From a virus, in the IMG/VR virus record IMGVR_UViG_3300005264_000039, positions 4,381-68,380 of that record: a DNA stretch of 64,000 bases, one strand, 5' to 3'. This document shows, in pieces, positions 8,316 to 51,114 of the stretch. A program made the position numbers and the translations under genes. Positions within the stretch are counted from its first letter, which is position 1; each line of letters begins with the position of its first letter. The notes below the pieces were generated by a model, which saw only the letters and a list, made by a program, of their open reading frames with translations, made no database searches and was not told the origin of the DNA.

Positions 8316-9110
8316 ATGGCATTCACAACATCGGATAGTTATGTAAAATACGTAGCTAGTATAAGGAATCTAAAACCATTGTCAAAGAAGGAAGAATCTT
8401 CTTTGACAATGCGTGCACATGGTGGTGACATAGGTGCTCGTAATGAATTGGTTAAGCACAATTTATTGTGGGCACTAAAATCAGCAAGAAAATTTCAGCA
8501 TACTGCTGAATTAGAAGATTTGATTCAGGAGGCAAATTTAGGATTATTGCTTAGTGTTGATAAATACTCCGATATTGGCAATAAGTTCTATACATTTGCC
8601 AAAAGTCACATTAATAAGGAGATTTTTGATTTTCTTGCAACCAAAAATTCTACTATTCGTATTCCGTGGAATCGTAGAAGAAATTTGGATAAAATACGGA
8701 AGTTCAAAGAAGATTTCGTAAAAAAACATAATCGCACACCAAGTATGTTTGAAATTCGTGATGTGTGTGGAGGAAGTGAACTTGATGAAACGATATCGGT
8801 TTCTCTGGACAGTCCTGTTACTGAAGATGGACTAACCATAATAGATACAATCGGTGTGAATGATGATGAAATAACCACATCTAAAAAAACAATCATGTCT
8901 GAATTGGAACGATTGTTAGATAAAAATGAAATTGTAATAATTTCATTGATGTTTGGGTTTGTAGATAATATCGAACGAGATATACCAACAATTTCAAATG
9001 TATTAGAACATGAATATAATATCTCATATTCTAATAAACAAATAAGTAGAATAATTGACGGTGCTTTGATAAAATTGAGGAAATCAACAATATTTAAAGA
9101 AATGTTATGA
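8316..9110 (+). CDS. RNA polymerase sigma-70 family factor
   Basis: [51 protein letters not shown]. Confidence 0.9.
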
Positions 9111-10081
9111 TGAATAAGAAAGATTATTATAAAATATTGGAAGTTTCACAGGAAGCATCTGGTGATGATATAAAAAAATCATATCGGAAATTAGCAAAGA
9201 AATACCATCCTGATACGAATCCCGGCAATGTAGAAGCAGAAGAAAGATTTAAAGAAATTGCAGAAGCATATGAAATTTTAGGAAATGTGGAAAAACGTTC
9301 ACAATATGATATGGGTAGACAATATTCACTGAAGGATATTTTAAACACGTATGAACAAGCGATATTCAGAACCAATGTCAATTATGGTATGGATATACGA
9401 GTTGAAGTTGTTGTTGAACCAACTCAATTATTAAAAGATAACACGATAATAATTGAATACCCACGTGTAATAAAATGTACTTCCTGTAATGGTGTTGGAG
9501 GTCACACTACAAAATCATGTGAAGTCTGTAATGGAAATGGTTATATTGATAATAATGGCATTAAAATAGAATGTCCGATATGTGGAGGTACAGGAAGCAT
9601 ACCAGATGATGTATGTGAATCATGTAATGGGAATAAGTTTATTAAAACGAACAAAAAGTTAAAAATAACATTGAATAAAGGAATATCATCAAAACAATTC
9701 AAACGAATTCATAATATGGGTAACGAAGGATTGAAGAAAAATGGTGATTTATATATCATCCAACGTATTAAAAATACGGATGAATTTAGAATATTACCAA
9801 ATGGGGATTTATTGGCGAATGTACATATTGATGTATTTGATTTAATGTTGAATGATGAACATGAAATAATATTATCAGATGATATTAAAGTCAAATATAA
9901 TACAAAAGACCGTGTTAACATGAAAATTGTATTAGATGGTGAAGGTATATTTGTAGAAGCAGTTGGTAAAACAACTAATTTAATAATAAACTTCATACCA
10001 AAAATACCAAAACAATCCGAATTTAATAATAATAATTTGAAAAAAATTAAAATGTTAATTAAAAGGATAAAAACAAAATAA
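9107..10081 (+). CDS. dnaJ: DnaJ chaperone
   Basis: J domain DYYKILEV...YHPD; four CxxCxGx(G/K) repeats; GDLY. Confidence 0.95.
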
Positions 10082-14500: not shown

Positions 14501-15460
14501 TTAAATATTTTGTATGAATCCTTCTTTTCGGAGAACATAATCAATTGCATTATTTGCAACATTAAATCCAAGAACTTCGCTAATTCCTTTTACTCCTGGA
14601 CTACCATTTATTTCTAAACAATGTGTGTTATCATTACTATCCTTAATAAAATCAAATCCAATTGTAAAAATCGAATCCCCAAATTTAGTTTGTAATGAAG
14701 TTATCATCGATTGTATGTATATTAGTTCTTTTTTTGTTGGGTCGTATCGTTCAACAGCCGCACCTTTGCTCACATTAGTTCGAAAATCAATACCTGCTCT
14801 ATTTCTACGCTCACCGCCAATAACCTCATCGCCAACTGTAAATATTCTAACATCGTAATTTGAATCTATATTTTCTTGCATAATAAATGGTCCTGTTTTT
14901 CGATATAGAATTTCTGCAATTGATTTTAATTGTTCATCGTTAAATACTTTTAAAACATCATTGCCTAAACTACCAGTTAAAGATTTTAATATCAATGGGT
15001 ATTTAATTTGTTCGGCAAAATGCAATAATCTACTATCTGTGGTTGCAAGATTTACTTTTGGAATGTATATTGTTTTGGGTGTAGGTATATTTAATTCTTT
15101 AAAAAACATATAGTTTTGATATTTGTCATTTGTGAAGCCAAGTAAATCAATTGGATTGTAAAATGATAAATTTAATATATTTTTAATGTTATTTATATAT
15201 CGAGATACATGTTTAGCATTATTTGTAGATAATGCTGGTCGTCTAATTATAAAAACATCATTTTCATTAATATAAACAAATTTTTCCAATGGACTGGAAT
15301 ACACTTTGTATCCGATTTTATCTTTGTATATAGTAGTAAACGATTTGTCAATTAAAATTACATTTATTCCTAACTGCTTTACATACATATACATAGTGTA
15401 TTCTGCACTTTGGTTGTTTGGATTTGTTGGTGTTTTACTGAATATGAATATTTGTTTCAT
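14501..15460 (-). CDS. rimK: RimK-family ATP-grasp ligase
   Basis: NDKY, IPTPKT, YPLILK..GSLG..V, MQENI, DVRIF, FRTNVSKG, GFDF, LEINGSPG. Confidence 0.88.
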   Translation of the reverse strand: MKQIFIFSKTPTNPNNQSAEYTMYMYVKQLGINVILIDKSFTTIYKDKIGYKVYSSPLEKFVYINENDVFIIRRPALSTNNAKHVSRYINNIKNILNLSFYNPIDLLGFTNDKYQNYMFFKELNIPTPKTIYIPKVNLATTDSRLLHFAEQIKYPLILKSLTGSLGNDVLKVFNDEQLKSIAEILYRKTGPFIMQENIDSNYDVRIFTVGDEVIGGERRNRAGIDFRTNVSKGAAVERYDPTKKELIYIQSMITSLQTKFGDSIFTIGFDFIKDSNDNTHCLEINGSPGVKGISEVLGFNVANNAIDYVLRKEGFIQNI

Positions 15461-33199: not shown

Positions 33200-33730
33200 A
33201 TGAATCCAGATAAAATTACATTAAAACGTATTAAATATTTACACCCATATTTACAACTTGATGCGTATTTGATATATCAAGATTTATATAATAGAGGTAT
33301 TAAAATTCGATATACATCTACATATAGAAGTTTCAACGAACAAAATACACTATATGCACAAGGTAGGATGAATTTAAAGGAATTAAATATATTACGGAAG
33401 AAAAATAATCTATACCAGCTGTCAGAAAAAGAAAATCGAGTAGTGACAAATGCAAAGGGCGGTCAGAGTTGGCATAATTATAGACTTGCATTGGATTTTT
33501 GTTTACTTGATAGACATAATGCTTATAATATGAATTATGATATAAACAATGACAACGAAAAAGATTGGATGCAAGTTGTTGAAATATTTAAATCATATAA
33601 TTGGGAATGGGGTAGTGAAGTTAATTTTAGAGGAGACACACCACATTTTCAAAAGACATTTGGGCATAGTATCGTAGATATACGTAAAAAATATGAAAAT
33701 AACGAATTTTTAGAATATGTAAAGTTATGA
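33200..33730 (+). CDS. M15 family L-Ala-D-Glu peptidase (endolysin)
   Basis: YRSFNEQNTLYAQGR, VTNAKGGQSWHNY.LALDF, WEWG, DTPHFQ. Confidence 0.92.
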   Translation: MNPDKITLKRIKYLHPYLQLDAYLIYQDLYNRGIKIRYTSTYRSFNEQNTLYAQGRMNLKELNILRKKNNLYQLSEKENRVVTNAKGGQSWHNYRLALDFCLLDRHNAYNMNYDINNDNEKDWMQVVEIFKSYNWEWGSEVNFRGDTPHFQKTFGHSIVDIRKKYENNEFLEYVKL

Positions 33731-33773
33731 AAAAAGTAATATATGTTATAATATTTATTATTTTACTGAAAGG

Positions 33774-34043
33774 TTAATTCAATATTTCAAAGTAAGTAAA
33801 AGGAAAAAAACTAGCTAAAGTATTATAGTATCGTAATTCTTCATATTTTAATTTATCATTTTCAAAGCAATTCTCATTTATAAAATAAATATCACCATAT
33901 TCATTAAGTTCAATCCTACCAATATAAAGACTATTACTTCCATGCCATTTAAACTTAACTTTAGTTCCTTGTTTAAGTAATGCTTTCTTTTTGTATGTTA
34001 ATTGATTTTCACGCTGTATCTTGAATCCTTTTATTTTCATCAT
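33774..34043 (-). CDS. hypothetical protein
   Basis: 89 aa ORF. Confidence 0.55.
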   Translation of the reverse strand: MMKIKGFKIQRENQLTYKKKALLKQGTKVKFKWHGSNSLYIGRIELNEYGDIYFINENCFENDKLKYEELRYYNTLASFFPFTYFEILN

Positions 34044-34046
34044 ATA

Positions 34047-34550
34047 TTATGATTTATTATATTTAATTGATAATTCATTCATTGCAATATTAATATCACC
34101 AATTGCACCAATCTTTTCCCAAAATAACTTAAATCCTTCTGATATGTCATGTAACCATATATGTTGTGCATTTGGCACTAATTGAGTAATTAACATATTT
34201 GTATTCTCATAGTAGTATTCAGCTAAATTTAATATTTTATGTTGTGTACTACCTAGATGAAACGAACCAAATTTCAATAAACTTTGTCGTTTTGCTAAAC
34301 TATGAATACATGACGTTCTTTCACGTTGTAAATGTACCCAATATGCATTTGGATATGATGTTTTTAATATCGGAATGAAATAACTCATACGATGGTCAAT
34401 TTCAATGTGATTATCGGGATATTTGAGATTATTATTTGTTAATCCAGATGTATTTGTTTCATGTCCACTTGTATAATTTTTTATGTGTGTGGTTGCTTTT
34501 GAAAATGTCACAGTACCACACCGACCAGTACCAACTACAAATATTCTCAT
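34047..34550 (-). CDS. sulfotransferase-like P-loop protein
   Basis: IFVVGTGRCGT, HE, YPNAYWVHLQR....IHS (PAPS-binding-like motifs). Confidence 0.65.
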   Translation of the reverse strand: MRIFVVGTGRCGTVTFSKATTHIKNYTSGHETNTSGLTNNNLKYPDNHIEIDHRMSYFIPILKTSYPNAYWVHLQRERTSCIHSLAKRQSLLKFGSFHLGSTQHKILNLAEYYYENTNMLITQLVPNAQHIWLHDISEGFKLFWEKIGAIGDINIAMNELSIKYNKS

Positions 34551-34580
34551 GTTATATATTTTGAAATATGGGTTTCATTT

Positions 34581-34853
34581 TTAATATAGTATTTGATTTA
34601 TCCGAATTGATAATTTATTTGATAATTTTCTAAATTTGGGTTTTTTATTTAGATAAATAAAATTACTATTCCATCCTGAAAATGGTAGAACGAAATACAT
34701 TATTGAATATTAATATGATTTATCTTGATATGTGGGTCTTTGTGATTTTTCTTTCCCACTTATAATATCCACTTTTTGTTTTTCCATATGTTTCGTCAAT
34801 CTAATAAATAAAAATTGGAAAAATATCCTGTTTGATAGTCCTAATTTGCTCAT
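34581..34853 (-). pseudogene. hypothetical gene with internal stop
   Basis: MSKLGLSNRIFFQF...KSY*YSIMYFVLPFSGW...; TAA at 34710-34712. Confidence 0.5.
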
Positions 34854-34855
34854 TG

Positions 34856-35140
34856 TTAATTGTTTTTATTACGTGAATTAATCCACGTTGTTATTTCACT
34901 TCGTGTTGGTGCTGAGTAAATACATTCATCGTATTTATTATGATTCATTCGTCTTGTATTCATCTTAACACGTTTTAATCCTTTTTTAACATATGGAATA
35001 TCTATATCCAACCAATACCAATGGGTTGGTTTATTAAATCCTTGTTTTTTTATATATTGTGCGGTTTTTAAATCTACAACATCAACATTATCAATTCCTA
35101 CTCCACATATGAAATTTAGTATTATATTATTTTCTTCCAT
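34856..35140 (-). CDS. hypothetical protein
   Basis: 94 aa; TAQYIKKQGF...YSAPT resembles 53938-54459. Confidence 0.6.
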   Translation of the reverse strand: MEENNIILNFICGVGIDNVDVVDLKTAQYIKKQGFNKPTHWYWLDIDIPYVKKGLKRVKMNTRRMNHNKYDECIYSAPTRSEITTWINSRNKNN

Positions 35141-35209
35141 TATTTCATTCTTTTTATAAATAAAGTAATTTTTTTAAATATATTGTTATATTTATATAAA
35201 AATTATATA

Positions 35210-35554
35210 ATGAATAAAAAAGAATTAATTAAACTAATTGAAATTGTTGTTAAACGTAAATTAAGTGAAAATAGTAAAATTGAACAATATGCTATCAATA
35301 CAAGAGATATGCATACTGCTATTCATAATTTATATGTGGTGAATAAGAAATCAGATGTAATAAGATTAGATAATCTATTTAAAGCATTGCGAAAAGCAAA
35401 AACTGAAGATAAAATAAATAATATATGGTATGTTATAAATAATAAATTTCCTGATTTAGAAGTGTTTGAAATTAATTATCGTGAAATTGATGATGATGAC
35501 ATGTATGGTAATATTCTTATATGGAATGATAATTCATATGATATTTACATGTAA
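35210..35554 (+). CDS. leader-bearing protein, putative internal head protein
   Basis: MNKKELIKLIEIVVKRKLSE leader; TATTTATA at 35189. Confidence 0.65.
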   Translation: MNKKELIKLIEIVVKRKLSENSKIEQYAINTRDMHTAIHNLYVVNKKSDVIRLDNLFKALRKAKTEDKINNIWYVINNKFPDLEVFEINYREIDDDDMYGNILIWNDNSYDIYM

Positions 35555-35556
35555 AC

Positions 35557-35592
35557 AAAAAAAAACGATATTATTCAATATCGTTTTTTTTA
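35557..35592. terminator. bidirectional terminator
   Basis: A-run CGATATT-ATTC-AATATCG T-run. Confidence 0.75.
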
Positions 35593-35703
35593 ATATATGT
35601 TTTGATTAACTTTTTGATATAATACCAATTAGTCATTCTCGATTTTACAGTAGCATTTTCATCAAGAATTTTATCAGTTGAAATTTTTATTTCACGAACA
35701 ACT

Positions 35704-36306
35704 TCAATTGGTACGTCCTCGTTGTCTTTTCGGTTCTTTCCCATTTTTTTTATTTTTTTGTGTGTTAATAGGTATTTCAAATGAATCATCAAAGAATGGA
35801 ATTATGAATTTGCGACCCTTTACAATTGTAAAGAAATCTTTAGCATCATTGTCATTTATAAAGACATTTCGTTCTGAAATAACTTTTCCAAATCGTTCAT
35901 CTGTATAAATCATTTGCATTTTCATACCATTATATGATTTATTATCTTTAGTTGTTTTTACTTTACTACCATATAATATACTTTCTTGGTCGAACATTTC
36001 TCCAAGTGTTAATATATCTTTTTTGGTTATATTTGGAATGAAGAATGATTGTTCTTTATTACCATAATAACCAATTACTGTTTGATAACCATAACCAAGT
36101 TGTCTGATTACTTTTTTAAGGTTATCGTTTTGTTGATTGTTTTCTTTCGATGATTGGTTTTTACCATTTTTATTCATGGCAGTGACCACACCAAACGTAT
36201 TTATACTTTTAACCAATCCTTTCATAATTAATGCTATTCTTGCATAACCAGACTCGTTTAATTGTTTTTTTACAATTGTTTCTATTAACTGTACTAATCT
36301 TTTCAT
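35704..36306 (-). CDS. leader-bearing DUF3293-like protein
   Basis: MKRLVQLIETIVKKQLNE leader; VTA.N..G, EN, G.Y...EQSF, LG..FDQESI. Confidence 0.65.
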   Translation of the reverse strand: MKRLVQLIETIVKKQLNESGYARIALIMKGLVKSINTFGVVTAMNKNGKNQSSKENNQQNDNLKKVIRQLGYGYQTVIGYYGNKEQSFFIPNITKKDILTLGEMFDQESILYGSKVKTTKDNKSYNGMKMQMIYTDERFGKVISERNVFINDNDAKDFFTIVKGRKFIIPFFDDSFEIPINTQKNKKNGKEPKRQRGRTN

Positions 36307-36615
36307 GTTATTTTTATATAAATATAAAACCAATGCAATTAAAAGTCCAAAAATGATTTTAATATACCAATTAATTATATTAAAAAATGTTAAAATTTAA
36401 TTTTATTTTGTACCAATCATACCCTAATTAATACATCAGTGGTCATAACCACGTGTTTTAGTAAGCAACTCAATATTCTTCCCATCTATAATATCCATTG
36501 TATGCCAATTGTTTCCGAGTTGGCTGTTTACTCGTTCACTTCCTATTTCTAAATTCATTTTAATGTAATTGGATTACTTCTTGTGTAAATAGTGTTTGTA
36601 CATGGATTTATAATA

Positions 36616-37287
36616 TCATTCATTTGGTAAATCATCTCTTTTTCCCATTCCATTTGCAGATGTTCTTTGTAAAGTAGTTAATGAATCATTAATAAATAGT
36701 TTAATCATGGAAATTTCATATAACTTAGTTGCAACACGAAAATCGCCAAATGAATAGGGAGTCCATTCAATTGAATCATTGTATATTGTCGAATGACAAA
36801 ATCCTAATATAGATACTTGTGCAGATATGGGTGGGTGACCATGTTTATATTTTAAAAAGTTTACATCATTTGGTATTTTAATATTATTTGGAAATAATAC
36901 CTGCCACATAACAAAATTATTAACAGATGTTATTAAAGTGTTTAATTTTAATAAACTATTGTCCAAATTAAACATATCATCATCATCAATATACAAAACA
37001 TATCCATTTTTGGTATATTTTAATAATTCATTTAAATATAGATTCCACGGTGCTGGTCTTCTTTTTGGTGGTACATTTATTATATCAGTTGGATGAATGT
37101 ATTTAACTCGAACTATTGTTATATCATCATATTCTTTGACATAATTCCATGTGAAATCATCATCGACACTTACTATTATATTATAATTCTTATATGTTTG
37201 ACGACGAATAGATTCAATACACTTTTTAAAGTAATTTGGTCTATTACTTGTACGAATTAGTATGTTAAATAGTGTGTCGTTTTTCAT
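36616..37287 (-). CDS. glycosyltransferase family 2
   Basis: ILIRTSNRP, CIESIRRQTY, VSVDD, LYIDDDD. Confidence 0.88.
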   Translation of the reverse strand: MKNDTLFNILIRTSNRPNYFKKCIESIRRQTYKNYNIIVSVDDDFTWNYVKEYDDITIVRVKYIHPTDIINVPPKRRPAPWNLYLNELLKYTKNGYVLYIDDDDMFNLDNSLLKLNTLITSVNNFVMWQVLFPNNIKIPNDVNFLKYKHGHPPISAQVSILGFCHSTIYNDSIEWTPYSFGDFRVATKLYEISMIKLFINDSLTTLQRTSANGMGKRDDLPNE

Positions 37288-37739
37288 TTGAAATTATTTA
37301 ATATTTTTTATATAGCTTCTGTTCTTAGAAATTTTGATTTTGTAACAGGTTTTATACCAATACCAAGCAAAATTCAGAATATTTTTTATATGTAAAATCT
37401 ATAAATTGGTCGAGTGTAACTGTATTCATAAAAACACTACTCCGCTTTTTATTTATAATATCGTTGCCTTTATAATATGTGTTTTTAAATTGTTTGCGTA
37501 ATTCATGTTATTATTTTTATATAAATAGATTGAGATTTGAGTTTTATTTTTCATTTTTTTTACTAATTTAGTATATTTAACTATATTATCCACATCATTA
37601 AATAGTTCATCATGCATACCATGTCTCATTCGTGCACCACGATTTTCAGTTTTTATGAATGGAAACTATTACTTTGTATATATAATTGTTTATAAGTGAA
37701 ATTACGGTGTACTATATCGGTATTTGATAGTATAGTTTA

Positions 37740-38057
37740 CTAAAAATAATTATATTTAATATTAACAACATATATTACCGATAATATAAATAAGAATATT
37801 TTTATTGTATGTGGTTTGTTAATATTATCATATGGAACAAAAGTATTAACATATAATAAAAATAATACATTACATAAAAATAAATAAATACGTATTAATA
37901 CATTAGTATCAGTGATATTACTAAATAAGTATAATAAAAGTAACATAGTAAATACAGTAGGAAGGATAATTATGTCAGATACTTTCTCATATGGTATTGA
38001 TGATATCATTATGAAAAATATATATATAAATATTAGTATCATTATTAAATTACTCAT
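37740..38057 (-). CDS. small multi-pass membrane protein
   Basis: Four hydrophobic segments in 105 aa. Confidence 0.55.
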   Translation of the reverse strand: MSNLIMILIFIYIFFIMISSIPYEKVSDIIILPTVFTMLLLLYLFSNITDTNVLIRIYLFLCNVLFLLYVNTFVPYDNINKPHTIKIFLFILSVIYVVNIKYNYF

Positions 38058-38097
38058 GTGTTTATTTTTTAATATGTATTTTTTATTTTTTAATAAG

Positions 38098-38340
38098 TTA
38101 AAATTTACAATGATAAATATTTATAATTCTATAATTATTTTCACTTACGAATATAACAGATGTATTATCATGTGAGAAGCTATATTCAAACATTGGAAAT
38201 GCAATTTGTAAACGTTTGAAGCATTCTTCAAATGTCATTGATATATCATCATTGAATTTTGTTATTTCTACGATTAGACGTGTAATAGTGTCAGTTATTA
38301 TAACATCACTAGACTCGAATTCAACTGCGAATATTTTCAT
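38098..38340 (-). CDS. hypothetical protein
   Basis: 80 aa; motif-2 promoter at 38355-38367. Confidence 0.55.
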   Translation of the reverse strand: MKIFAVEFESSDVIITDTITRLIVEITKFNDDISMTFEECFKRLQIAFPMFEYSFSHDNTSVIFVSENNYRIINIYHCKF

Positions 38341-38394
38341 AATTTATATTTTATACAAATAAAGTAATTTTTTTTGAATAATATATATTTACAT

Positions 38395-38428
38395 AAAAAA
38401 ACAAGTAAATATTTTACTTGTTTTTTTA
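38395..38428. terminator. terminator hairpin
   Basis: A-run CAAGTAAA-TAT-TTTACTTG T-run. Confidence 0.75.
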
Positions 38429-38538
38429 TTATATATAATGTTACTTAGAACATTCCGATTGTATATTCTTTATCTAATTTATTATACTTGTTAATTGTTG
38501 GTTTGTATATTTTATTCTTTTGTTATTTTGTTATTTTG

Positions 38539-39093
38539 TTATTTGAATTCATATGTTGGTATGAACTCTTTAGCATATTTTTTAAGTAATTTTACTAAAT
38601 ATATCGCCTGTTGTTTAGGAGTCAAAACCATATTCAAATCACCATTAATTGTATGTTTAATGTTAGTTTCATCTCGAATCATGAAAGTATGTAGAGTTCT
38701 ACTATGTAACGAGATATGGGTTGACAATTTAAAAAAGTTATTGTTTTTATCTTGAAAGAAGAATTCCATTAAATTATTATTCCCATTTTTAACAGGTACA
38801 CGAGCGTTATCAGGTGTTACCAACTTTAGTATTTCTTTACGTAATTCTTCGATGTAAGCATCTTTAACTGATTCCCATGTTTTGTTTAGTTTCCATTTTT
38901 TGGAATTGTTTTCACGTTTAAACTCTTCAAGCTCATCGTCCAGCTTTTTATACGCTGGTTTGATATTATCACGTAGTTTAATAATATCTTTTATTGTTGT
39001 TTTTTTGTTAAATTTAATTTTATCACTTTCATTCAATGTTTTACTAACTATTGATTCGATTAAACTTGTTAATTGTTGGTTTACATTTTTCAT
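38539..39093 (-). CDS. leader-bearing protein, putative internal head protein
   Basis: MKNVNQQLTSLIESIVSKTLNE leader; TATTTATA on minus strand at 39107-39114. Confidence 0.65.
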   Translation of the reverse strand: MKNVNQQLTSLIESIVSKTLNESDKIKFNKKTTIKDIIKLRDNIKPAYKKLDDELEEFKRENNSKKWKLNKTWESVKDAYIEELRKEILKLVTPDNARVPVKNGNNNLMEFFFQDKNNNFFKLSTHISLHSRTLHTFMIRDETNIKHTINGDLNMVLTPKQQAIYLVKLLKKYAKEFIPTYEFK

Positions 39094-39152
39094 ATTAATA
39101 TTTTTATATAAATATAACTAAATAGTTATTAAATACTATTTATAATAAAATA

Positions 39153-39518
39153 ATGAAAATAAGAAGACTACCAAATTTCTTACAGAATATGAAAATGTTG
39201 CCTTTTATAATAAATGGTATTACACTGATGCCATTTGGCATATTCATTAGAAAAGGACAAGAAAACAATAAAAGACTTATTAATCACGAATCAATTCATG
39301 CTCAACAACAAAAAGAATTATTATTTATATTCTTTTATATATTATATGGCATTGATTTTATATTGAAATTTCTTAAGTATGGAAACTTAGTTGATACGCA
39401 TCGTGAAATTATGTTTGAACGTGAAGCATACACAAATCAATATGATTTTTCATATTTAAACAAACGTAAATATTGGTCATTTATTAAATATATGTTTAAA
39501 AATAATAAAAAAAACTAA
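39153..39518 (+). CDS. HExxH-motif small membrane-associated protein
   Basis: GITLMPFGIF, LINHESIHAQQQKEL, FEREAY. Confidence 0.7.
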   Translation: MKIRRLPNFLQNMKMLPFIINGITLMPFGIFIRKGQENNKRLINHESIHAQQQKELLFIFFYILYGIDFILKFLKYGNLVDTHREIMFEREAYTNQYDFSYLNKRKYWSFIKYMFKNNKKN

Positions 39519-39530
39519 ATAATAAATAAT

Positions 39531-40244
39531 ATGATAACACTCAACTCTGTCAATGAATTATATTCATCGTATTTAAGTAAACCTAAATATAAAGATGTAT
39601 CATTATATTGGAGGACATATTTAAAATCATATCCATTTAATATACAATTATGGTTAATTAAAAATTCAACAACAAGTAGTATGCCGAGTGTACGAACTAT
39701 GATTCAAGCAAATGATTCAAATGTAATATACATAGGTGAAAATATGGATTCTACTTGGGAACTATTTGCAAGTAATTCTGATAGTTTTAATAAGTTCCGT
39801 TCAGGATTTATATATCAAGGACAAATTTCAAGCTATATATTATTCAATAATGAATTAACATTCATTCAAAAAAATATATTTCAAACTGAACCATATATTA
39901 AAATTATATTTGGTGATATAATTGTCCAACCTAAAATAATTAATAAATATGCATATGAACATTTTAATACTTATTATGATTATTATTCAAATGTAACAGA
40001 ACTATATCAAAGTGGAACTGGTAATATTTTAATGACTCCACTAACATCACCAATGTATTATGGTGAGCATGTTTCTACGTTTATTGCTAAATACGACAAT
40101 GTTGAAAAGATTGTTAATACATTTAAACGAATTATGTTTAATGATATTGAAACTCGTCAGACATATGTATTACCATCATCATATAAACAAAGTGAGTTAT
40201 ATGAAGTTACGAAAACGACACCCAAAACATCTTTGATTAGATAA
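39531..40244 (+). CDS. hypothetical protein
   Basis: 237 aa ORF. Confidence 0.65.
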   Translation: MITLNSVNELYSSYLSKPKYKDVSLYWRTYLKSYPFNIQLWLIKNSTTSSMPSVRTMIQANDSNVIYIGENMDSTWELFASNSDSFNKFRSGFIYQGQISSYILFNNELTFIQKNIFQTEPYIKIIFGDIIVQPKIINKYAYEHFNTYYDYYSNVTELYQSGTGNILMTPLTSPMYYGEHVSTFIAKYDNVEKIVNTFKRIMFNDIETRQTYVLPSSYKQSELYEVTKTTPKTSLIR

Positions 40245-40273
40245 AAAAATCCCATGTAATATGGGATTTTTTT
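40244..40273. terminator. bidirectional terminator
   Basis: AAAAAATCCCAT-GTAAT-ATGGGATTTTTT. Confidence 0.85.
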
Positions 40274-40349
40274 GCTTTGGTGATGTTTATATTAGAACCC
40301 ATACGACATAAACACATTATCAATTACCCATTTATCATCGTTATTTACT

Positions 40350-40670
40350 TCATCCGAAGTATATGTTATTTTTAATTGTATTTTTATTTAACAATGGTTT
40401 AATGTGGATTGGGTTTACACTCAAAACTTCAAAACTACCTTCATGTGTATGTCCAGTTCCATCTACAAATTGGTAGTTGGCTTTTATTTTAACTATAAAA
40501 TATCTATAATCATCATTAAATTTATTCAATTCGTAACTATTGAGATTATCTTGTAAAATTGTTCCATCGAATATTTTTTTTTCTAAGAAACTCAATGGGG
40601 CTTCACACACAAATAAATTATTTTCAACATCTTTGGTAACTGCTATATTAAAAATTTCACTATTATTCAT
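40350..40670 (-). CDS. hypothetical protein
   Basis: 106 aa ORF in minus-strand operon. Confidence 0.6.
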   Translation of the reverse strand: MNNSEIFNIAVTKDVENNLFVCEAPLSFLEKKIFDGTILQDNLNSYELNKFNDDYRYFIVKIKANYQFVDGTGHTHEGSFEVLSVNPIHIKPLLNKNTIKNNIYFG

Positions 40671-41145
40671 CTTTTTGTTTTTTAATATGAGTACATTTTA
40701 TTAATGGTAAATTACTAAATTTTATTGGGTTATCATAATTAACCGATATATATTGTGATGTATGAACCCACCTATCAATTGGTTGATGTTCTGCATTTTC
40801 CCAGCTACGAGTATATCGTAGTACTTGATATATATCGAATGCTTGTTTCGATTGGATTGGTATTTCATCACATGTAATTCCACGAAATGCATTATTTAAT
40901 GTTAACGATTCATCATCAGTAGTGTTACCAACAACATGTGATTTTAATTGTTTGGTAAATAAATCGATAAAATCATTTGATATGACATTTTTTTTATTAA
41001 CACCATATTCAATTGAATTGATGTATCTAAATATTTCTTTATACTGTAATAATCCTATTCTACCGATTAATTCCATTGCACTTTCAATTAAAACTAATTG
41101 TTGTTCATTTAATATAATTTCGTATTTTTTATTTGTATCTTCCAT
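40663..41145 (-). CDS. hypothetical phage protein
   Basis: 160 aa ORF in operon. Confidence 0.65.
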   Translation of the reverse strand: MEDTNKKYEIILNEQQLVLIESAMELIGRIGLLQYKEIFRYINSIEYGVNKKNVISNDFIDLFTKQLKSHVVGNTTDDESLTLNNAFRGITCDEIPIQSKQAFDIYQVLRYTRSWENAEHQPIDRWVHTSQYISVNYDNPIKFSNLPLIKCTHIKKQKDE

Positions 41146-41476
41146 GCTGGGCTGTGTTAATATTTGATATTGCGTTTAGCATTATTAATATGATTCGATT
41201 ATCTTTATATTTATGAGCAATTTCATACAACCAATAATAATTGAATTCTGAGTTTTTTAATATGTTTATTATATTTGGTGAGAATGTGTTTTTTAATTGT
41301 ATAATTAATCTAGTATCCGCCAAATCATTGAGTTGTTTAAATAGACTCCCCTTCCTATCATTAAAATATCGGATTGAATATAATTTTTGTTCAAATGGAT
41401 TCATTTTTAAAATTTCGGGTGAAAATTTAGACTCCAATTTTTCGATTGCTTTTTTTGTTTTTTCGTATAATTTCAT
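41129..41476 (-). CDS. hypothetical protein
   Basis: 115 aa ORF in operon. Confidence 0.55.
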   Translation of the reverse strand: MKLYEKTKKAIEKLESKFSPEILKMNPFEQKLYSIRYFNDRKGSLFKQLNDLADTRLIIQLKNTFSPNIINILKNSEFNYYWLYEIAHKYKDNRIILIMLNAISNINTAQHGRYK

Positions 41477-41482
41477 GTTATT

Positions 41483-42469
41483 TTATTTTATTAGCATTAG
41501 TTGACCAAATATACCTATATTGATATTATTTGTGTTTATATATTGATATATTTTATTTGTCAATTTACTTCCAATAAATCCATTTAAAATGAATTTATCA
41601 TACTCATGTATCGGAATATGTGATAATAATTGATATTTCGTTAGATTGAACATCGAGTATTTTTCTTTGATAATATCATTATTGTTATGATATGATTTTA
41701 TATGTGAGAAATTAGTTTCAAGTGCGAGTAACGCATCAATGCCAATTACAAGTGGATTTGTGTGATGTATTTCATTTAATGACTCCGCATTATTAATTTC
41801 ATAATATGAAATAGGATAATCAAAAAAATCCAAGTCGTTTGTAATTCTCAGTACATTTCGCTTGAATATATCTGAATAATTATATACATTGTGTTTCACA
41901 ATATCATCGACATATAATTCAATTCGTTGAAGATTAAATGCATTTTTGTCGAAGTCTGGATAAGTCGATGCATTTGGTTTAAATGTTGTGTTATATGTTG
42001 ATGATTTAATTATAAAATCTTTATCTGTTTTATTTAGATATGACGGTAAATGCTCTTGTAAAGAATCGTCAATATTAGTAATCTCAAGTACTCTAAATTT
42101 ACCAATCGTATCAAGAACTGTTATTGTTGTTTTACCACGTCTGATAATAGTTCCATTTGACAACGGTGCTATTTTATTAGTATTTGTATTTATAAAAATG
42201 CCATTGTACACATTGTTATGTATATGATTTCTAATATATAAATTAAGTACCCCCTTCGATTTTTGTTTTATATTGGGAATGAGTGTTTTATTTATATTTG
42301 CATTATTTACTATTATATTTTTATGTATGACACTGTTTAAATTACTATATTTAATTGTTGATATTGTTTCAGACGTTTTATCAACTAATAATAATTCATT
42401 GTATATTTTGGGTTCTAGTGCTAAATTATTTATACGTGCAGGTTGATTGATGTATACTGATGATTTCAT
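41483..42469 (-). CDS. highly diverged QueA-like protein (tRNA ribosyltransferase-isomerase fold)
   Basis: Colinear remnants LLLVDK, YSNL..IVNN, LPSYL, YYEI..AE.LN, LVIG...LALET, NGFIG...IY, FGQLMLIK; 328 aa. Confidence 0.55.
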   Translation of the reverse strand: MKSSVYINQPARINNLALEPKIYNELLLVDKTSETISTIKYSNLNSVIHKNIIVNNANINKTLIPNIKQKSKGVLNLYIRNHIHNNVYNGIFINTNTNKIAPLSNGTIIRRGKTTITVLDTIGKFRVLEITNIDDSLQEHLPSYLNKTDKDFIIKSSTYNTTFKPNASTYPDFDKNAFNLQRIELYVDDIVKHNVYNYSDIFKRNVLRITNDLDFFDYPISYYEINNAESLNEIHHTNPLVIGIDALLALETNFSHIKSYHNNNDIIKEKYSMFNLTKYQLLSHIPIHEYDKFILNGFIGSKLTNKIYQYINTNNINIGIFGQLMLIK

Positions 42470-42482
42470 TCTATTTATTTTT

Positions 42483-42719
42483 TTAAATTTGTTTTTGTAT
42501 CATATATATTTGTTTGTATGTGTATTTTTCATTTACATATTTTGTAATTTGCGATTCAATATACTTAATTATAACACCTGCTGACACTTTATAATGTAAT
42601 TCATTTTCACAAACATGGCATTTCAAATTATCATGCCAATTTATATTACCACATATATCACATAGTTTATAATTATGTGGATTGTTGTTGATTTCTCCTA
42701 GTGTGTGAATATTATTCAT
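42483..42719 (-). CDS. small zinc-ribbon protein
   Basis: CDICG...CHVC. Confidence 0.65.
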   Translation of the reverse strand: MNNIHTLGEINNNPHNYKLCDICGNINWHDNLKCHVCENELHYKVSAGVIIKYIESQITKYVNEKYTYKQIYMIQKQI

Positions 42720-43506
42720 TTATTATTTTTTTTATGTTATTTACCAATGTATTTGTTATATTCAGTGTACCTGTGTTTTCACTTCGTACATGGAACAGAT
42801 TATCAAATGTATCTGAGTCATTCTTCCAACCAGCCATAGCAAAATACACTAATCGATTACTAGGTAAAAACATATTAGCAATCTCTGATTTAATGCCTTT
42901 ACGTTTAAGCCATAAACTTAATTGATATAATTTTTTACTTGTAAATTTAATTAACGATTGCTGTGTGATAGATAGTTCGGTTGGAATGTAGAATGTTGGT
43001 TTGTATCGTTTATCACGAGAAGTTTCAATTTCAAATGAAAATTTACGATGTCGTACTAAATGAGAAATGAATTTATATGGAACATGTCCCCATATAATTT
43101 TAAAATTGTCAAACAAAGACATATCAATATTTTCGTTTTTAATGTCATTTAAAATTGATTCATTTATATTAGCTCGTAATAATGTTCGTAAATTTGTAAA
43201 ATATGTTGGTTCATTGTTTTCATTCAATGTAACATACGAATATCGAGTAATTTTATTTACAAATGATGCATAGTCAGTATTAAATTTTGATTGTATTTTA
43301 TTTAATAATGTTTGATTTAATATTATTGGCACAAATTCAAATACACTTGATGCCTTTCCTCCGCTTTCTGTTAATAACCGATTCCACAATAATTGTTTCT
43401 GTGCATCTGTTCGTGTTTGTGATATTCTACCTTTTGTTATACCTGCAGAGAAATCTACAATGTCACTATTTGATAATTCTATGTGGTGTTGTTTTCGTAT
43501 AAACAT
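42712..43506 (-). CDS. ThyX-like flavin-dependent thymidylate synthase (divergent)
   Basis: SSVFEF, HLVRHRKFSFEIETSR, GIKSEIANMFLP, NLFHVR. Confidence 0.7.
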   Translation of the reverse strand: MFIRKQHHIELSNSDIVDFSAGITKGRISQTRTDAQKQLLWNRLLTESGGKASSVFEFVPIILNQTLLNKIQSKFNTDYASFVNKITRYSYVTLNENNEPTYFTNLRTLLRANINESILNDIKNENIDMSLFDNFKIIWGHVPYKFISHLVRHRKFSFEIETSRDKRYKPTFYIPTELSITQQSLIKFTSKKLYQLSLWLKRKGIKSEIANMFLPSNRLVYFAMAGWKNDSDTFDNLFHVRSENTGTLNITNTLVNNIKKIINE

Positions 43507-43578
43507 GTTTATTATTTTAGTTTTTTATAAATAAAACAATTTTTTTTGTTATTATCACAATATTTATATAAAAATATT

Positions 43579-44007
43579 ATGGAATTAACAAATTTATTTA
43601 CAGCAATAGAATCAATATTCACTTATTATAATGATGATGAGCAAAGTATATATCATTTTTTACGAATAAGTTCTAATCCAAATGTAATTGACTTTGATGA
43701 GCGTATTGCATTAGTATTGTATAAAACAATAATCGATGGACATTTAACATCAAATGATATTGAAACATTGTATAATGAGAATGTATCGAATTATATACAG
43801 CAAATAAATCAATATACAGGAGAAAGTGATTACAATTATATTGATAGAATAAATAGTAGTGAAGTATTATCACGATTACGATTTTGTATTCTTGATGATG
43901 AATACTTTATATCAACATACAATTCAAAATTGTCATTAAATAGTACAAATGATATTAAATCGTCATTGCGAATGAATAATTATAATGGTTATGGATGTCA
44001 TATTTAA
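43579..44007 (+). CDS. hypothetical protein
   Basis: ATG after TATTTATA at 43561. Confidence 0.6.
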   Translation: MELTNLFTAIESIFTYYNDDEQSIYHFLRISSNPNVIDFDERIALVLYKTIIDGHLTSNDIETLYNENVSNYIQQINQYTGESDYNYIDRINSSEVLSRLRFCILDDEYFISTYNSKLSLNSTNDIKSSLRMNNYNGYGCHI

Positions 44008-44170
44008 TTTTAATTATTTTTTTATACTATATATAATAAAGAATAAGATTCTTACCTAATACTCTATTATAATATAGAGTCAAATAATTATATTATTAAT
44101 AATTTTTACTAATAAAAATTGATAATTAACCCATATTTTTGTAATATAATACAAAATTAAAAAAAGAATT

Positions 44171-45154
44171 ATGAAAAAGAACAAGAAAATCAATGATTTA
44201 TTGCAAGAAGCAATAGACGAAGCAAAATTAGTACGTGAAACTGCTAGACAAACAACAAAGTCTTTTATGTCAGATTCATATAATCCTAAATTAAAATTTG
44301 AGATTAATGATGATGAAGATGAAGATGAGTTAATTGGCAATGATGAAAATGAAATCTTAGAAAGTTTTATTACATTAGAAGATTTAGAACTTGATGATGA
44401 GTTGGAACTTGATGATGAGTTAGAACTTGGAGATGAATTAGAACTTGAAGACGAGTTAGAACTTGAAGACGAGTTAGATTTAGAACTTGATGATGAGTTA
44501 GAACTTGATGATGAGTTAGATTTAGAACTTGATGACCTTGAAGACGAGTTAGAACTTGAAGACGAGTTAGATTTAGAACTTGATGACCTTGAAGAAGAGG
44601 ATTTATCAATTGATAATGAACTTGAATTGGAACTTGGAGATGAATTAGAACTTGAAGACGAGTTAGAACTTGATGAAGATTTAGATTTGGAATCATTATT
44701 CAATGAAGTAAGTTCGCAAATTAAAGAAGAAGACGAAGCAGAATTACAAATGAAACAATTAATGGAACAATTGCAAGATGCAAAAGTACAATTAAAACGT
44801 TCACTAAAAATAATCAATTTTCAACAAAAACAAATTAAAGAAGTGAATTTAATAAATGCAAAGTTATTATACACTAATAAAATTTGGAAAGCTGATAATT
44901 TACAAGAAAATACTAAACAAAAAGTATTTGAAACAATTGATAAGGCATCGTCAATTAAAGAAGCAAAACTTATTTATGAAACATTAAAATCTTCTTTAAA
45001 AGTGAATTCGCATAAACGAACTAAAACAAAACAAAAAAAATTAACTGAGAGCGTGTCTTCAAAGAGAACAACGTCAACTAAACCAATTATAAGTAATGAA
45101 TTGAATTCACAAGCAAAACGTTTTCAACAATTGGCAGGTATCTTAGAAAATTAA
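44171..45154 (+). CDS. prohead core/scaffolding protein
   Basis: Very acidic centre, EVNLINAKLLYTNK, C-terminal RFQQLAGI, directly upstream of major capsid. Confidence 0.85.
   Translation: MKKNKKINDLLQEAIDEAKLVRETARQTTKSFMSDSYNPKLKFEINDDEDEDELIGNDENEILESFITLEDLELDDELELDDELELGDELELEDELELEDELDLELDDELELDDELDLELDDLEDELELEDELDLELDDLEEEDLSIDNELELELGDELELEDELELDEDLDLESLFNEVSSQIKEEDEAELQMKQLMEQLQDAKVQLKRSLKIINFQQKQIKEVNLINAKLLYTNKIWKADNLQENTKQKVFETIDKASSIKEAKLIYETLKSSLKVNSHKRTKTKQKKLTESVSSKRTTSTKPIISNELNSQAKRFQQLAGILEN
44375..44690 (+). repeat. coding tandem repeats encoding (LE/LD)-rich acidic tract
   Basis: Recurring TTAGAACTTGATGATGAG and TTAGAACTTGAAGACGAG units. Confidence 0.92.
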
Positions 45155-46981: not shown

Positions 46982-48489
46982 ATGAAGCTAATGCAATGTA
47001 AATATTGTGATAAACAATATACAGACTTAATTAATAAAAGTGGTGGATTAACTAAGCATTTAAAATCTAAGCATGGTATAGTTGATAAAAATGCACTTGG
47101 TCATTTTGATGTCATTACAGTAGACGACAAACCAACTATTAAATGTCCGTATTGTGATTGGACAACAATTGATGTAAATAATTTAAGTGGGCAATTTTCC
47201 GTACATATATTAAATACACATAATAAATCTGAATTTGAATGTGTATCTGAATTTCCAGATTTCAAAACATATTTTAATTTAGATAAAAAAATAGATACTA
47301 GATATAAAGAAAATTATGTTATATGCAAAATTTGCGGTAAATACATGAAGCGTATCAATAATACGCATCTGAAAAAACATGATACAACACTAATAGAATA
47401 TAAACAAAAATATGGTTTGGATGATATAGTATCAGTAATGTCATCCCAATTACAGTCAGGTATAACAACACAACGAAATATCACATCCGATTATTCATTA
47501 AATAATAGTGAAATAATAGTACCTAAAAGCTATTTTAGTGATTATATAACTGCAAATGGAAAACTCAATTTAATAAAACATATCCCATCGTTATTAACAG
47601 AAATTAGAACATCACAATCATTATTTCCATATCCTGTAAATACTAATAATGATATACGTGAAATAATTAGTAAAATATATAAATATAATACATCAACAAT
47701 ATTACAAGATAATGTATTTAATAACAACACATCAATAATAGGTGTATACTTTTTAAAAACAATATTTAAATCTTATTGGAATAGTAAGTTTAAAGATAAA
47801 AAATCTATTGTTGATGCTTGGTTCGATGATGATATTATGGGAAGAGTAATCAGATATATAATTGGAATAAATTTTTCAACTAAAATATCGGACTTTACTA
47901 TTCATAATGTATTAAAAGGATTAACCGAACATAGATTATCAATTAGTTTCTTTAAACCGATTGTCGCTGTTGCAATATATGAAAAGCTATTAACTAACAA
48001 AACTAATCCAACTGTAATCGACCCTTGTGTTGGATTTGGGGTAGATTGTTAGGATTCAGTAGCAAGTATCCACTTGGAACATATATTGGCTGTGAGCCAA
48101 ATAAAACAACCTTTAATGAGCTATTAGAATTACGAGATATTATTATTAGTAATTCGGATGTGAAAAAGGAACAAATTAAATTATACAATTGTAAATGGGA
48201 AGATTTTAAATATAACGGTGATTATGATTTAGTATTTACATCTATTCCATATTATGATACTGAGATATATTATAATCAATCTGAATATTTTACATATAAT
48301 GATATTGACGATTGGAAAAATACTTTTATATCTACATTTTATAATTATAAAAATGTGTTTATTAATATGGATATGAATACATATGATAAGTTAAATTTAG
48401 ATAGTGATATATTATATAAATTGTCGAATAACACATCACATTTCAATAAAAATACAAAAACTAAATGTGAACTAATTGTTAAAATCTGA
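46982..48489 (+). pseudogene. zinc-finger/DNA amino-methyltransferase fusion split by one frameshift
   Basis: Three CxxC...H fingers; VIDPCVGFG continues as GRLLG..YIGCEPN..FTSIPYY in another frame at the G4 run 48038-48041. Confidence 0.8.
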
Positions 48490-49797: not shown

Positions 49798-51114
49798 ATG
49801 AAACTAAACAAACCAACTAACCCTAATTATTGTTTTACTGTTGTAAAACTTGGGGATGACATTAAGTTACCAAATATGGACAATATTGTTCATAAAAATG
49901 TATTTGGTAACCTTGTGATAACAGGAAAAAGTATATTTAAAAAAGGTGATTTAGCACTATATATACCAGTTGAAACTCAGCTTTCATCTGAATACTGTAA
50001 ATTCAATGATTTATTCGATAAAAAGGAATTTAACAATGATACTACAAAAAAAGGGTATATCAGTTATAAAAAAAGACGAATTAAAGCTATTAAATTTTAT
50101 AAAGGGACTTATGAATCAAATGGGTTATTAATGCCGTTAGATAGCTTATCATATATCAATGATGACATTGCAAAATCATTAACATTAGGAGATGAATTTG
50201 ATACAATTGGTGGTGTTGCTGTGTGTAATAAATATGAATTACCAATTAAACGTCAAAAAGGACAATCAAATAATAACAAACCAACTGGATTTAATCAAGT
50301 AATAGATAATCAATTTAAATTTCATGTAGACACATTACAATTGGGTAAATTTATCGATAGATTTAATCCGCATGACCTTATTTCTATTACATATAAATTA
50401 CATGGTACTAGTGCTATAAGTAGTAATGTATTAGTCAAAAGAAAACTCAATTTAATTGAAAAATTATTGTTGAAATTAAATGTTAATATTAACACGTCTT
50501 ATTATAGTAACACTGGATTATATTCTAGTCGGAAAGTAATTAAAAACAAATGGATACGAAAGGAAAATCAATATCATCAAAAAGCAGATTTACGTAGAAC
50601 AGCACACGAATTAATATCACCACTATTACCCAAAGGAATGACTGCTTATTATGAATTAGTAGGATATGAGCCAAATGGAACAATGATACAAAAGCCATTT
50701 GACTATGGATACACCAATCCAAACGATGATGATAATGAATATACTGAAGGTGTTCATTTTGGTATATATGTGTATAGACTGACATATACAAATGAATCTG
50801 GTATAGTATTTGAATTTTCAGCAAAACAAGTTCAAGATTGGTGTAAGGTTTTTAATGTAAAACCAGTACCTGAATTATATTATGGTTCAGCAAATGAATT
50901 ATTTGGATATAATGATGTTGATTTACATGATTGGAGACAAAAATTATTAATAGTATTAAAAGATAAATATTGGTTAACACAATGTAATATGTGTAATAAT
51001 AAAGTACCAAGTGAAGGTATCGTTGTTAGACGTGAAGGATATTCATTGGATATATTGAAATATAAGAATTTTGATTTCTTATTACTTGAAACAAAATCAT
51101 TAGATAAATCATGA
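49798..51114 (+). CDS. ATP-dependent RNA ligase (Rnl2/DRB0094-like) with N-terminal OB-like domain
   Basis: Motif I YKLHGTS, SSRK, YYELVG, VPELYYG, SEGIVVR, KYKNFDF. Confidence 0.85.
   Translation: MKLNKPTNPNYCFTVVKLGDDIKLPNMDNIVHKNVFGNLVITGKSIFKKGDLALYIPVETQLSSEYCKFNDLFDKKEFNNDTTKKGYISYKKRRIKAIKFYKGTYESNGLLMPLDSLSYINDDIAKSLTLGDEFDTIGGVAVCNKYELPIKRQKGQSNNNKPTGFNQVIDNQFKFHVDTLQLGKFIDRFNPHDLISITYKLHGTSAISSNVLVKRKLNLIEKLLLKLNVNINTSYYSNTGLYSSRKVIKNKWIRKENQYHQKADLRRTAHELISPLLPKGMTAYYELVGYEPNGTMIQKPFDYGYTNPNDDDNEYTEGVHFGIYVYRLTYTNESGIVFEFSAKQVQDWCKVFNVKPVPELYYGSANELFGYNDVDLHDWRQKLLIVLKDKYWLTQCNMCNNKVPSEGIVVRREGYSLDILKYKNFDFLLLETKSLDKS

Follow-up and report, generated by a model that had tools for sequence, protein, structure and literature searches.

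Does a very AT-rich phage carry a descendant of the queuosine-pathway enzyme QueA, and if it does, what has that descendant kept of its ancestor's active site? The question is raised by an open reading frame (ORF) of 328 amino acids (aa) at positions 41,483 to 42,469, on the minus strand, of the viral DNA analyzed here (the window; 64,000 nucleotides of IMG/VR virus record IMGVR_UViG_3300005264_000039). We refer to its product as P0001. A first-pass annotation described P0001 as a full-length, catalytically eroded relative of QueA, the bacterial S-adenosylmethionine (SAM):tRNA ribosyltransferase-isomerase, and suggested that it had been repurposed as a pseudo-enzyme. The explanation that we favor, with a probability of about 0.6, is that P0001 descends from QueA, has lost the canonical activity, and serves in binding a QueA ligand. 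P0001 is probably the first degenerate offshoot of the QueA family to be found in a virus.

The ORF was found as described. An exhaustive phmmer scan of 1.84 billion representative proteins returned two sequences at E ≤ 0.001, the query and a 340-aa protein from another contig, P0002, which is 39% identical to P0001 (E 4.6e-48; 41% in a MAFFT alignment). Residues 2-327 of P0001 align to residues 2-339 of P0002, and the beginning of the alignment at residue 2 supports the ATG start. No further member was found by tblastn against phage GenBank, by IMG/VR scans with the protein or with the P0001-P0002 alignment, by a scan of GTDB genomes with the same alignment, or by a metagenome scan with P0002, and a word-indexed search of 5.8 billion proteins recovered only the query itself, both with P0001 and with P0002. 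A hidden Markov model (HMM) of the two sequences detected no member in 80 related phage loci, which are anchored on the capsid gene (best E 0.45). The family is extremely rare, with two known members.

Because a full-length homologue at 39% identity exists, P0001 is a genuine gene, and the ORF is a real, expressed-type phage gene. That it could instead be a chance frame in AT-rich DNA is refuted by the same homologue; long chance frames are rare in such DNA because it is full of stop codons, and the gene is tightly packed within a string of genes on the same strand, so that we give this reading practically no credence. The two proteins are 50% identical in residues 216-328, 43% in residues 1-60, 37% in residues 141-215, and 26% in residues 61-140, the segment equivalent to the QueA barrel. 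The best-conserved part, the C-terminal third, contains new polar motifs common to both proteins (YPISYY, ALETN, NDIIxEKY, IPIxEYDK, and GIFGQ), which argues for a selected function and not for a decaying gene.

The resemblance to QueA had been noticed as a series of six short blocks. All six are present in the translation, and each aligns with the QueA block named for it. LLLVDK (residues 26-31) and IVNN (residues 52-55) fall on the QueA HMM columns 'rLLvvdk' and 'llVlNdt'. LPSYL (residues 141-145) corresponds to LPPYI (residues 149-153) of Escherichia coli QueA, within a BLASTP match of residues 141-171 to residues 149-179 (E 0.022), and its Pro and Tyr are also found in P0002. LVIG..LALET (residues 240-252) aligns with AVGTT..RxLES, and NGFIG..IY (residues 296-308) and FGQLMLI (residues 321-327) align with AFAG..aY and fGDAmLI in HMM columns 312-342. 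As in bacterial QueA (PF02547), the blocks follow the same order from the N to the C terminus, with a weak profile similarity that is colinear from end to end, and the lengths of 328 and 340 aa are close to the 341-356 aa of most QueA sequences in the comparison.

A protein search with E. coli QueA gave only relatives of at least 81% identity, and diverse QueA sequences were drawn from plasmid and phage records and from Bacteroidota genomes. One set of 17 sequences contained E. coli QueA, 11 further chromosomal-type sequences, and five divergent sequences of plasmid paralogues, the latter two groups being taken from plasmid and phage records; a set of 57 added 40 Bacteroidota QueA sequences from 151 genomes. 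HMMER was run with all filters off. With the 17-sequence HMM, P0001 scored 12.8 bits over the whole protein (single-comparison P 2.7e-6), including a domain of 11.9 bits that places HMM columns 20-156 on residues 18-155. None of 2000 composition-preserving shuffles reached 12.8 bits, and the reversed sequence scored 0.8 bits. The window has 90 frames between stops that are 100 aa or longer, of which P0001 was the best, with the runner-up at 2.9 bits, and among 2755 phage frames it ranked first both with this HMM and with one built from the 12 core QueA sequences (12.1 bits). P0002 scored 5.0 bits at the same place, a value reached by one shuffle in 2000. The C-terminal ends are in register with a weak score (HMM columns 312-342 on residues 297-327, P 0.03), and an HMM restricted to the C-terminal part of QueA gave P 0.009, with 34 of 2000 shuffles reaching the score. 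All domain matches of P0001 and P0002, with three different HMMs, fall on the diagonal.

In local profile-profile alignments made with hhalign, the P0001-P0002 family matches QueA over 300 columns (family 10-328 to QueA 12-344), or over 294 columns with a second implementation. Of the column-shuffled and block-shuffled templates, one in a series of 94 and one in a series of 73 reached the local score, and none aligned over more than 96 columns. The C-terminal parts alone gave a score of 22.1, on the diagonal, which none of 115 shuffles reached (maximum 19.1). The global score was 14.4, compared with 2.2±1.6 for column-shuffled templates (maximum 7.3, none of 66 reaching it), and rose to 17.3 with the 57 QueA sequences, compared with 2.8±2.1 (maximum 10.1, none of 75); relative to shuffled templates these scores amount to z = 6.8-7.7. 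P0001 alone scored 17.2 over 292 columns in global mode. Eighteen other proteins of the window peaked at 7.6, and 364 frames of 260-420 aa from the 80 related phage loci peaked at 15.8, with at most 139 aligned columns and none at 17.2 or above. Neither the global score nor the aligned length of P0001 was matched by any of these 382 natural controls.

As a cross-check on conservation, P0001 alone was aligned to QueA, with P0002 kept out of the alignment. Identical residues were found in 19 of the 62 aligned near-invariant QueA columns. P0002 conserves 15 of these 19 positions, compared with 115 of 285 aligned positions overall (40%; binomial P 7e-4) and with 19 of the 43 invariant columns at which P0001 differs from QueA (Fisher P 0.011). 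Measured against the 40% background, the phage family thus preferentially keeps the residues that resemble QueA. From these sequence comparisons, true descent of P0001 from QueA appears likely.

What has been lost is extensive. Near-invariant columns were defined on the 12 core QueA sequences (n = 76), and in the family-to-QueA alignment 16 of the 76 are identical in P0001 and 60 are changed, including columns of the AAPTAGLHF, TLHVGxGTF, HxMHxE, GTTxxR, TNFHxPxST, and GD motifs. The AAPTAG segment falls in an alignment gap, and the HF that follows is reduced to DF. Also lost in P0001 are the Gly, Thr, and Phe of TLHVGxGTF, the His and Glu of HxMHxE, and the two Thr and the Arg of VGTTxxRxLES, and the Asp of GDAMLI has become Gln in both P0001 and P0002. 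The first-pass annotation had found no recognizable AAPTAGLHF, TLHVG, or TNFH motif, and indeed P0001 has no intact AAPTAGLHF, TLHVGxGTF, or TNFHxP and is without the invariant motifs of QueA; a faint remnant of TNFHxP is visible in SHIP of P0001 and TNIP of P0002. Retained in P0001 are the equivalents of N59, G104, P150, Y152, Y165, F185, G254, L261, E262, Y324, and G338 (E. coli numbering). The claim of catalytic erosion holds in that 14 columns do not vary among QueA and its plasmid paralogues, and both phage proteins keep only four of these (N, G, E, and G); R23, E235, R266, H306, and D344 (Phocaeicola QueA numbering) are each gone from one or both of them. According to the structural report, no SAM complex of QueA was available (PMC1282579), and "catalytically eroded" therefore refers here to the loss of family-invariant polar residues, not of proven catalytic ones.

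In the explanation that we favor, the ancestor would be a bacterial QueA. The length and block order of the ancestor would have been retained, with N-terminal strands, a beta-rich middle corresponding to the inserted barrel, the LPPY linker, and a C-terminal alpha/beta part running to the GDAMLI strand; the QueA fold, as described for 1VKY, has two domains, an alpha/beta semi-barrel and an inserted beta-barrel (PMC1282579). Nearly all of the invariant polar and Gly/Pro residues of the active-site motifs would have been replaced, and the motif loss suggests that SAM ribosyl transfer to preQ1-tRNA is no longer performed. Canonical QueA chemistry by P0001 is unlikely, and the protein is probably a QueA derivative without the canonical active site. 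The conserved C-terminal third suggests that a ligand-binding or altered catalytic site may persist, and a pseudo-enzyme is plausible. Of the functions that the first-pass annotation suggested, a tRNA-binding or shielding protein, a decoy, or an enzyme with a new substrate, the locus favors none over the others. Our preferred guess is that P0001 binds a QueA ligand during infection, which could be either the anticodon arm of the tRNAs with GUN anticodons (Asn, Asp, His, and Tyr) or SAM. Codons for these four amino acids make up 23.7% of the 5834 codons in 10 genes of the phage, and 84% of them end in U; with so many codons read by the four Q34 tRNAs, the phage would have a stake in these tRNAs.

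Several results weigh against descent from QueA. Pfam returned no family for either protein (cut-off E ≤ 1 with P0001, E ≤ 10 with P0002), neither reached the PF02547 Queuosine_synth gathering threshold (25 bits), and a six-frame PF02547 search of the record gave no match at E ≤ 10, the control being positive in 9 of 14 genomes. NCBIfam returned no family at E ≤ 1 for either protein, and PADLOC returned none. The best PHROG matches, at E 0.018 and 0.063, were to families of unknown function, and the PDB gave no match by sequence and one, the unrelated 'Protein B2' (E 0.14), by profile. AlphaFold2 models from a single sequence and from the two sequences had a mean predicted local distance difference test (pLDDT) of 30.2 and 31.7, every residue being at 50 or below, and are unusable; a Foldseek search with the second model gave noise, with nothing at E ≤ 0.001. 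A QueA cluster was the first structural neighbor of P0001 in the ESM Atlas, but with a template modeling (TM) score of 0.30/0.34, which is under the bar, and a model pLDDT of 0.28, and it was not recovered with P0002. DUF6414, a feature neighbor in the ESM Atlas (score 0.85), was considered and set aside, as a six-frame PF19952 search gave it no support.

The profile evidence itself depends on the sequences that go into the QueA HMM. P0001 fell to 8.9 bits (rank 3 of 2755) when 10 Bacteroidota sequences were added to the core 12, and to 6.6 bits (rank 2, outscored by one control frame) with the 57-sequence HMM; it scored 0.5 bits both with a Bacteroidota-only HMM, a value reached by 159 of 2000 shuffles, and with an HMM of the plasmid paralogues only (rank 115 of 2755). 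Unrelated phage frames scored 7.4-10.5 bits through a chance 'LPLPIYI' and stood above P0001 with two of the five HMMs. In the outranking frames, 'GKLPLPIYI' at the C terminus of a structural protein matches QueA PLPPYI off the diagonal with 8-10 bits, which shows that natural chance matches of 9-10 bits happen at this database size. The local hhalign scores were modest (27.1 and 26.1; P 0.007-0.011; probability 5.5% and 3.9%), and P0002 alone failed in global mode with a score of 3.0. In the reverse direction, the two-sequence family HMM gave P < 0.01 for 3 of 17 QueA sequences, with 4 of the 17 unreported, and no match at E ≤ 1 in three Bacteroidota genomes that have QueA. Because QueA was proposed from this very sequence, single-family P values need correction for as many as 25,000 or so families, which turns the P of 2.7e-6 into an E of about 0.07. 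The HMMs do not point to one donor lineage, the Bacteroidota-only HMM favoring P0002 and the core HMM P0001. The weight of the claim is further limited by a family of two members and by models at a pLDDT of about 30.

These results are what would be expected if P0001 were an orphan phage protein unrelated to QueA, whose likeness arose from chance hydrophobic, strand-like blocks in a low-complexity protein of similar length, rich in Asn, Ile, Lys, and Tyr. These four residues make up 42-48% of the phage proteins, compared with 16-20% of QueA. The silence of the curated models, of PDB sequences, and of PHROGs, an HH-suite probability of 4-5%, HMMER scores of 0.5-6.6 bits with other QueA HMMs when control frames score 7.4-10.5 bits, the failure to recover the ESM Atlas match with P0002, and P values that are not free of selection all favor it. 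Chance alignments in the controls, however, were short and off the diagonal (at most 139 columns in global and 96 in local mode), whereas P0001 spans 285-300 columns on the diagonal with a score equaled by none of the 382 natural controls. The N-terminal and C-terminal signals are independent and both colinear, and QueA-invariant matches are retained in P0002 well above background (15 of 19, compared with 40%). We consider an unrelated orphan doubtful, and yet the most serious of the competing explanations. The derivation from QueA put forward by the first-pass annotation, which was to be doubted if no profile or structural similarity were found, can be upheld with moderate confidence on the custom-profile signal, the colinearity, and the conservation in the homologue; curated profiles show nothing where custom profiles give a weak colinear signal, and the AlphaFold models, at a pLDDT of about 30, provide no structural confirmation.

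If descent from QueA is accepted, P0001 could still be an active, very divergent enzyme of the QueA type, which would use SAM as ribosyl donor and act either on host tRNA, giving more oQ or Q for phage genes rich in NAU codons, or on a new acceptor, for example preQ1 within the DNA of the phage. The C-terminal third, where the QueA motifs lie, is the best-conserved part (50%) and has many conserved acidic and polar residues, the equivalents of E262 (of the LES motif), G254, N59, and G338 are kept in both proteins, the Q-family tRNAs read 23.7% of the codons, and 7-deazaguanines in phage DNA are known (PMC6884629). Yet R23, E235, R266, H306, and D344 are invariant even in distant plasmid paralogues and are each missing from one or both phage proteins, the AAPTAG segment is deleted in the alignment, no Tgt/DpdA, QueC, or QueD is found in 68 kb (about 35% of the genome), and dQ was in none of the phage DNAs tested (PMC6884629); an active enzyme is therefore very unlikely. 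A more specific version of our favored explanation, in which a captured QueA has become a noncanonical factor acting on the Q-family tRNAs (Asn, Asp, His, and Tyr) or on SAM, is itself rather unlikely to be right in its particulars. The protein might be a catalytically dead anticodon-loop binder that controls the Q34 status of tRNAs or shields them from anticodon nucleases, or it might be a QueA-derived counter-defense protein that consumes or sequesters SAM, beside a SAM-lyase-like gene 5 kb away.

Two genes of the window touch on SAM and tRNA in their own right. A 209-aa SAM-lyase-like protein is encoded at 35704-36333 (minus strand), with matches to DUF3293 (E 2.4e-10), to S-adenosylmethionine lyase (E 6.4e-7), and, weakly, to EndoU; judged from these matches, it is likely a counter-defense gene whose product degrades SAM, and it lies about 5 kb away from the QueA-like ORF. 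The second gene, at 49798-51114 (plus strand), encodes an RNA ligase whose OB fold is of the PHA02142 type; it has a possible role in tRNA repair, which would bear on tRNA-centered readings of the QueA-like gene.

To our knowledge, QueA has been described as a bacteria-only, single-function family. P0001 differs from bacterial QueA in that it is phage-encoded, is not beside tgt, remains under every curated threshold, and has 60 of the 76 near-invariant columns changed. Divergent copies on mobile DNA do occur: plasmids of Rhizobium, Sinorhizobium, Salmonella (IncHI2), Geobacillus, and Streptococcus carry QueA paralogues, annotated as S-adenosylmethionine:tRNA ribosyltransferase-isomerase, with 27-32% identity to E. 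coli QueA. With the reverse HMM, the paralogue from Salmonella was among the two top-scoring sequences, matching in two colinear domains. The paralogues keep the 14 invariant columns and match E. coli QueA (tblastn E 7e-55 to 4e-11), whereas the phage protein does neither, and, as noted above, an HMM of the paralogues misses P0001.

A parallel in viruses is offered by the phage 7-deazaguanine systems, in which DpdA occurs with FolE, QueC, QueD, and QueE and in which phages likewise make use of queuosine-pathway proteins (PMC6884629). Those systems end at preQ0, preQ1, or G+, whereas here no match to TGT/DpdA, QueC, or PTPS/QueD was found at E ≤ 1 in the 68,380-base record, which is about 35% complete. 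This counts against a QueA-related role; since the record is only 35% complete, it does not show that tgt and the queuosine genes are absent from the whole phage. QueA, QueG, and QueH were in none of the viruses analyzed, according to two reports (PMC6884629, PMC8265664). Our search of the literature, supplementary tables excluded, found no earlier report of a repurposed QueA, a QueA pseudo-enzyme, or a QueA-like protein of a phage.

Normal QueA sequences do occur in 22 GenBank records labeled as phage, mostly unverified or metagenomic fragments. In two records of Acinetobacter phage MD-2021a (254 kb), the match range and identity of QueA are the same as in Acinetobacter baumannii records of the plasmid collection, which suggests that this QueA is bacterial DNA. 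We did not accept the records with normal QueA as evidence of viral QueA, as most look like bacterial contigs. About half of the 151 sampled Bacteroidota genomes had two or three PF02547 matches, and a second QueA copy seems to be common in that phylum.

The features of the locus are collected in the table. The QueA-like gene lies in a leftward string that begins with a ThyX-like gene. The Thy1 match of the ThyX-like protein covers residues 138-221 only, its RHR...S motif is present with a spacing that looks atypical, and NCBIfam gave nothing for it. The three small ORFs downstream had no notable match in Pfam, PHROG, NCBIfam, or PADLOC and are probably co-transcribed. The 30 bases ahead of the ATG of the QueA-like ORF are without a purine run resembling a Shine-Dalgarno sequence, which would fit a host of the Bacteroidota type. 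A promoter and terminator scan gave 59 sites where 48±8 were expected, and is uninformative in DNA this AT-rich. None of 14 proteins from 33.2-44.0 kb had a tblastn match in the 80 related phage loci, which have no more in common than the scaffold, the capsid, and two genes downstream; the QueA-like gene therefore appears to lie in a lineage-specific accessory region. The ThyX-like and 160-aa neighbors, used as queries, had no relatives in IMG/VR. The stretch at 33200-44007 also contains a family 2 glycosyltransferase and an M15 peptidase.

Table. Features of the QueA-like gene, its gene string, and the source of chance QueA matches (positions in the window unless a locus is named)
Feature	Position	Strand	Remarks
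QueA-like ORF (P0001)	41483..42469	-	ATG start, 328 aa; from the ORF list
N-terminal strands and beta-barrel-equivalent region, residues 18-155	42005..42418	-	carries the HMMER signal; QueA HMM 20-156
LPSYL (residues 141-145), equivalent to QueA PLPPYI	42035..42049	-	BLASTP against E. coli QueA
GIDALLALET (residues 243-252), equivalent to QueA VGTTxxRxLES	41714..41743	-	G and E kept, TT and R lost; hhalign, column table
NGFIG..IY..GIFGQLMLI (residues 296-327), equivalent to QueA C-terminal AFAG..aY..fGDAmLI	41489..41584	-	HMM 312-342 on residues 297-327
Zinc-ribbon-like protein, 78 aa	42483..42719	-	13 nucleotides upstream of the QueA-like ORF; Pfam Zn_ribbon_DZR_6 E 0.0023, under the cut-off
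Divergent ThyX-like protein	42712..43506	-	first gene of the leftward string; Pfam Thy1 26.9 bits, cut-off 24.8
Three small downstream ORFs, 115, 160, and 106 aa	40350..41476	-	overlapping or 6 nucleotides apart; no family
Protein of about 390 aa after the capsid gene, ends 'GKLPLPIYI'	L192:4028-5197	+	source of chance QueA HMM match
Close copy of the L192 protein, same 'GKLPLPIYI' end	L193:7843-9018	+	chance QueA HMM match

The window comprises most of a 68,380-base virus record with a CheckV completeness of 35%, so that about 35% of the genome is covered. The G+C content is 21-31% along the window, which is very AT-rich overall (about 25% G+C), and no tRNA gene was found in the 64 kb. Its genes include those for a major capsid protein of T4 type (Pfam Gp23, E 4e-75), for a portal of the same type, for proteins resembling gp32 and RecA/UvsX, and for a family B DNA polymerase; by this gene content its source is a T4-like, very AT-rich phage. 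The closest phage capsids in GenBank, at 51-53% identity, belong to an uncultured phage of 484 kb, to Microcystis phage Mel-JY01, and to the Flavobacterium 'immuto' phages.

Several other genes of the window were noted in passing. A sigma-70 region 2 protein (264 aa) is directly followed by a full DnaJ (324 aa, with J domain, CXXCXGXG region, and C-terminal domain) at 8316-10081 (plus strand), and a RimK-like ATP-grasp ligase (E 5e-26) is encoded at 14501-15460 (minus strand). Just upstream of the capsid gene, at 44171-45154 (plus strand), lies the gene of a very acidic protein containing long repeats of (D/E)ELEL, which has a homologue in 78 of the 80 related loci and is probably the scaffold. 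A serine-repeat ORF at 44080-44817 (minus strand) is the mirror image of this acidic repeat ORF on the opposite strand and probably not a gene. Directly after the major capsid gene, at 46982-48052 (plus strand), is a gene for a protein that combines zinc fingers of the BED/C2H2 type with a ROS/MucR domain; only the closest relative, L129, shares it.

If P0001 is a captured QueA that now acts on tRNA or on SAM, the QueA lineage would gain its first member from a virus and also its first pseudo-enzyme. Should descent from QueA be confirmed, phages would be seen to go past the preQ0/preQ1 part of the pathway, and the unusual QueA fold would prove reusable without SAM-ribosyl chemistry. The protein would also provide a handle on how an extremely AT-rich phage treats the tRNAs on which a quarter of its codons depend.

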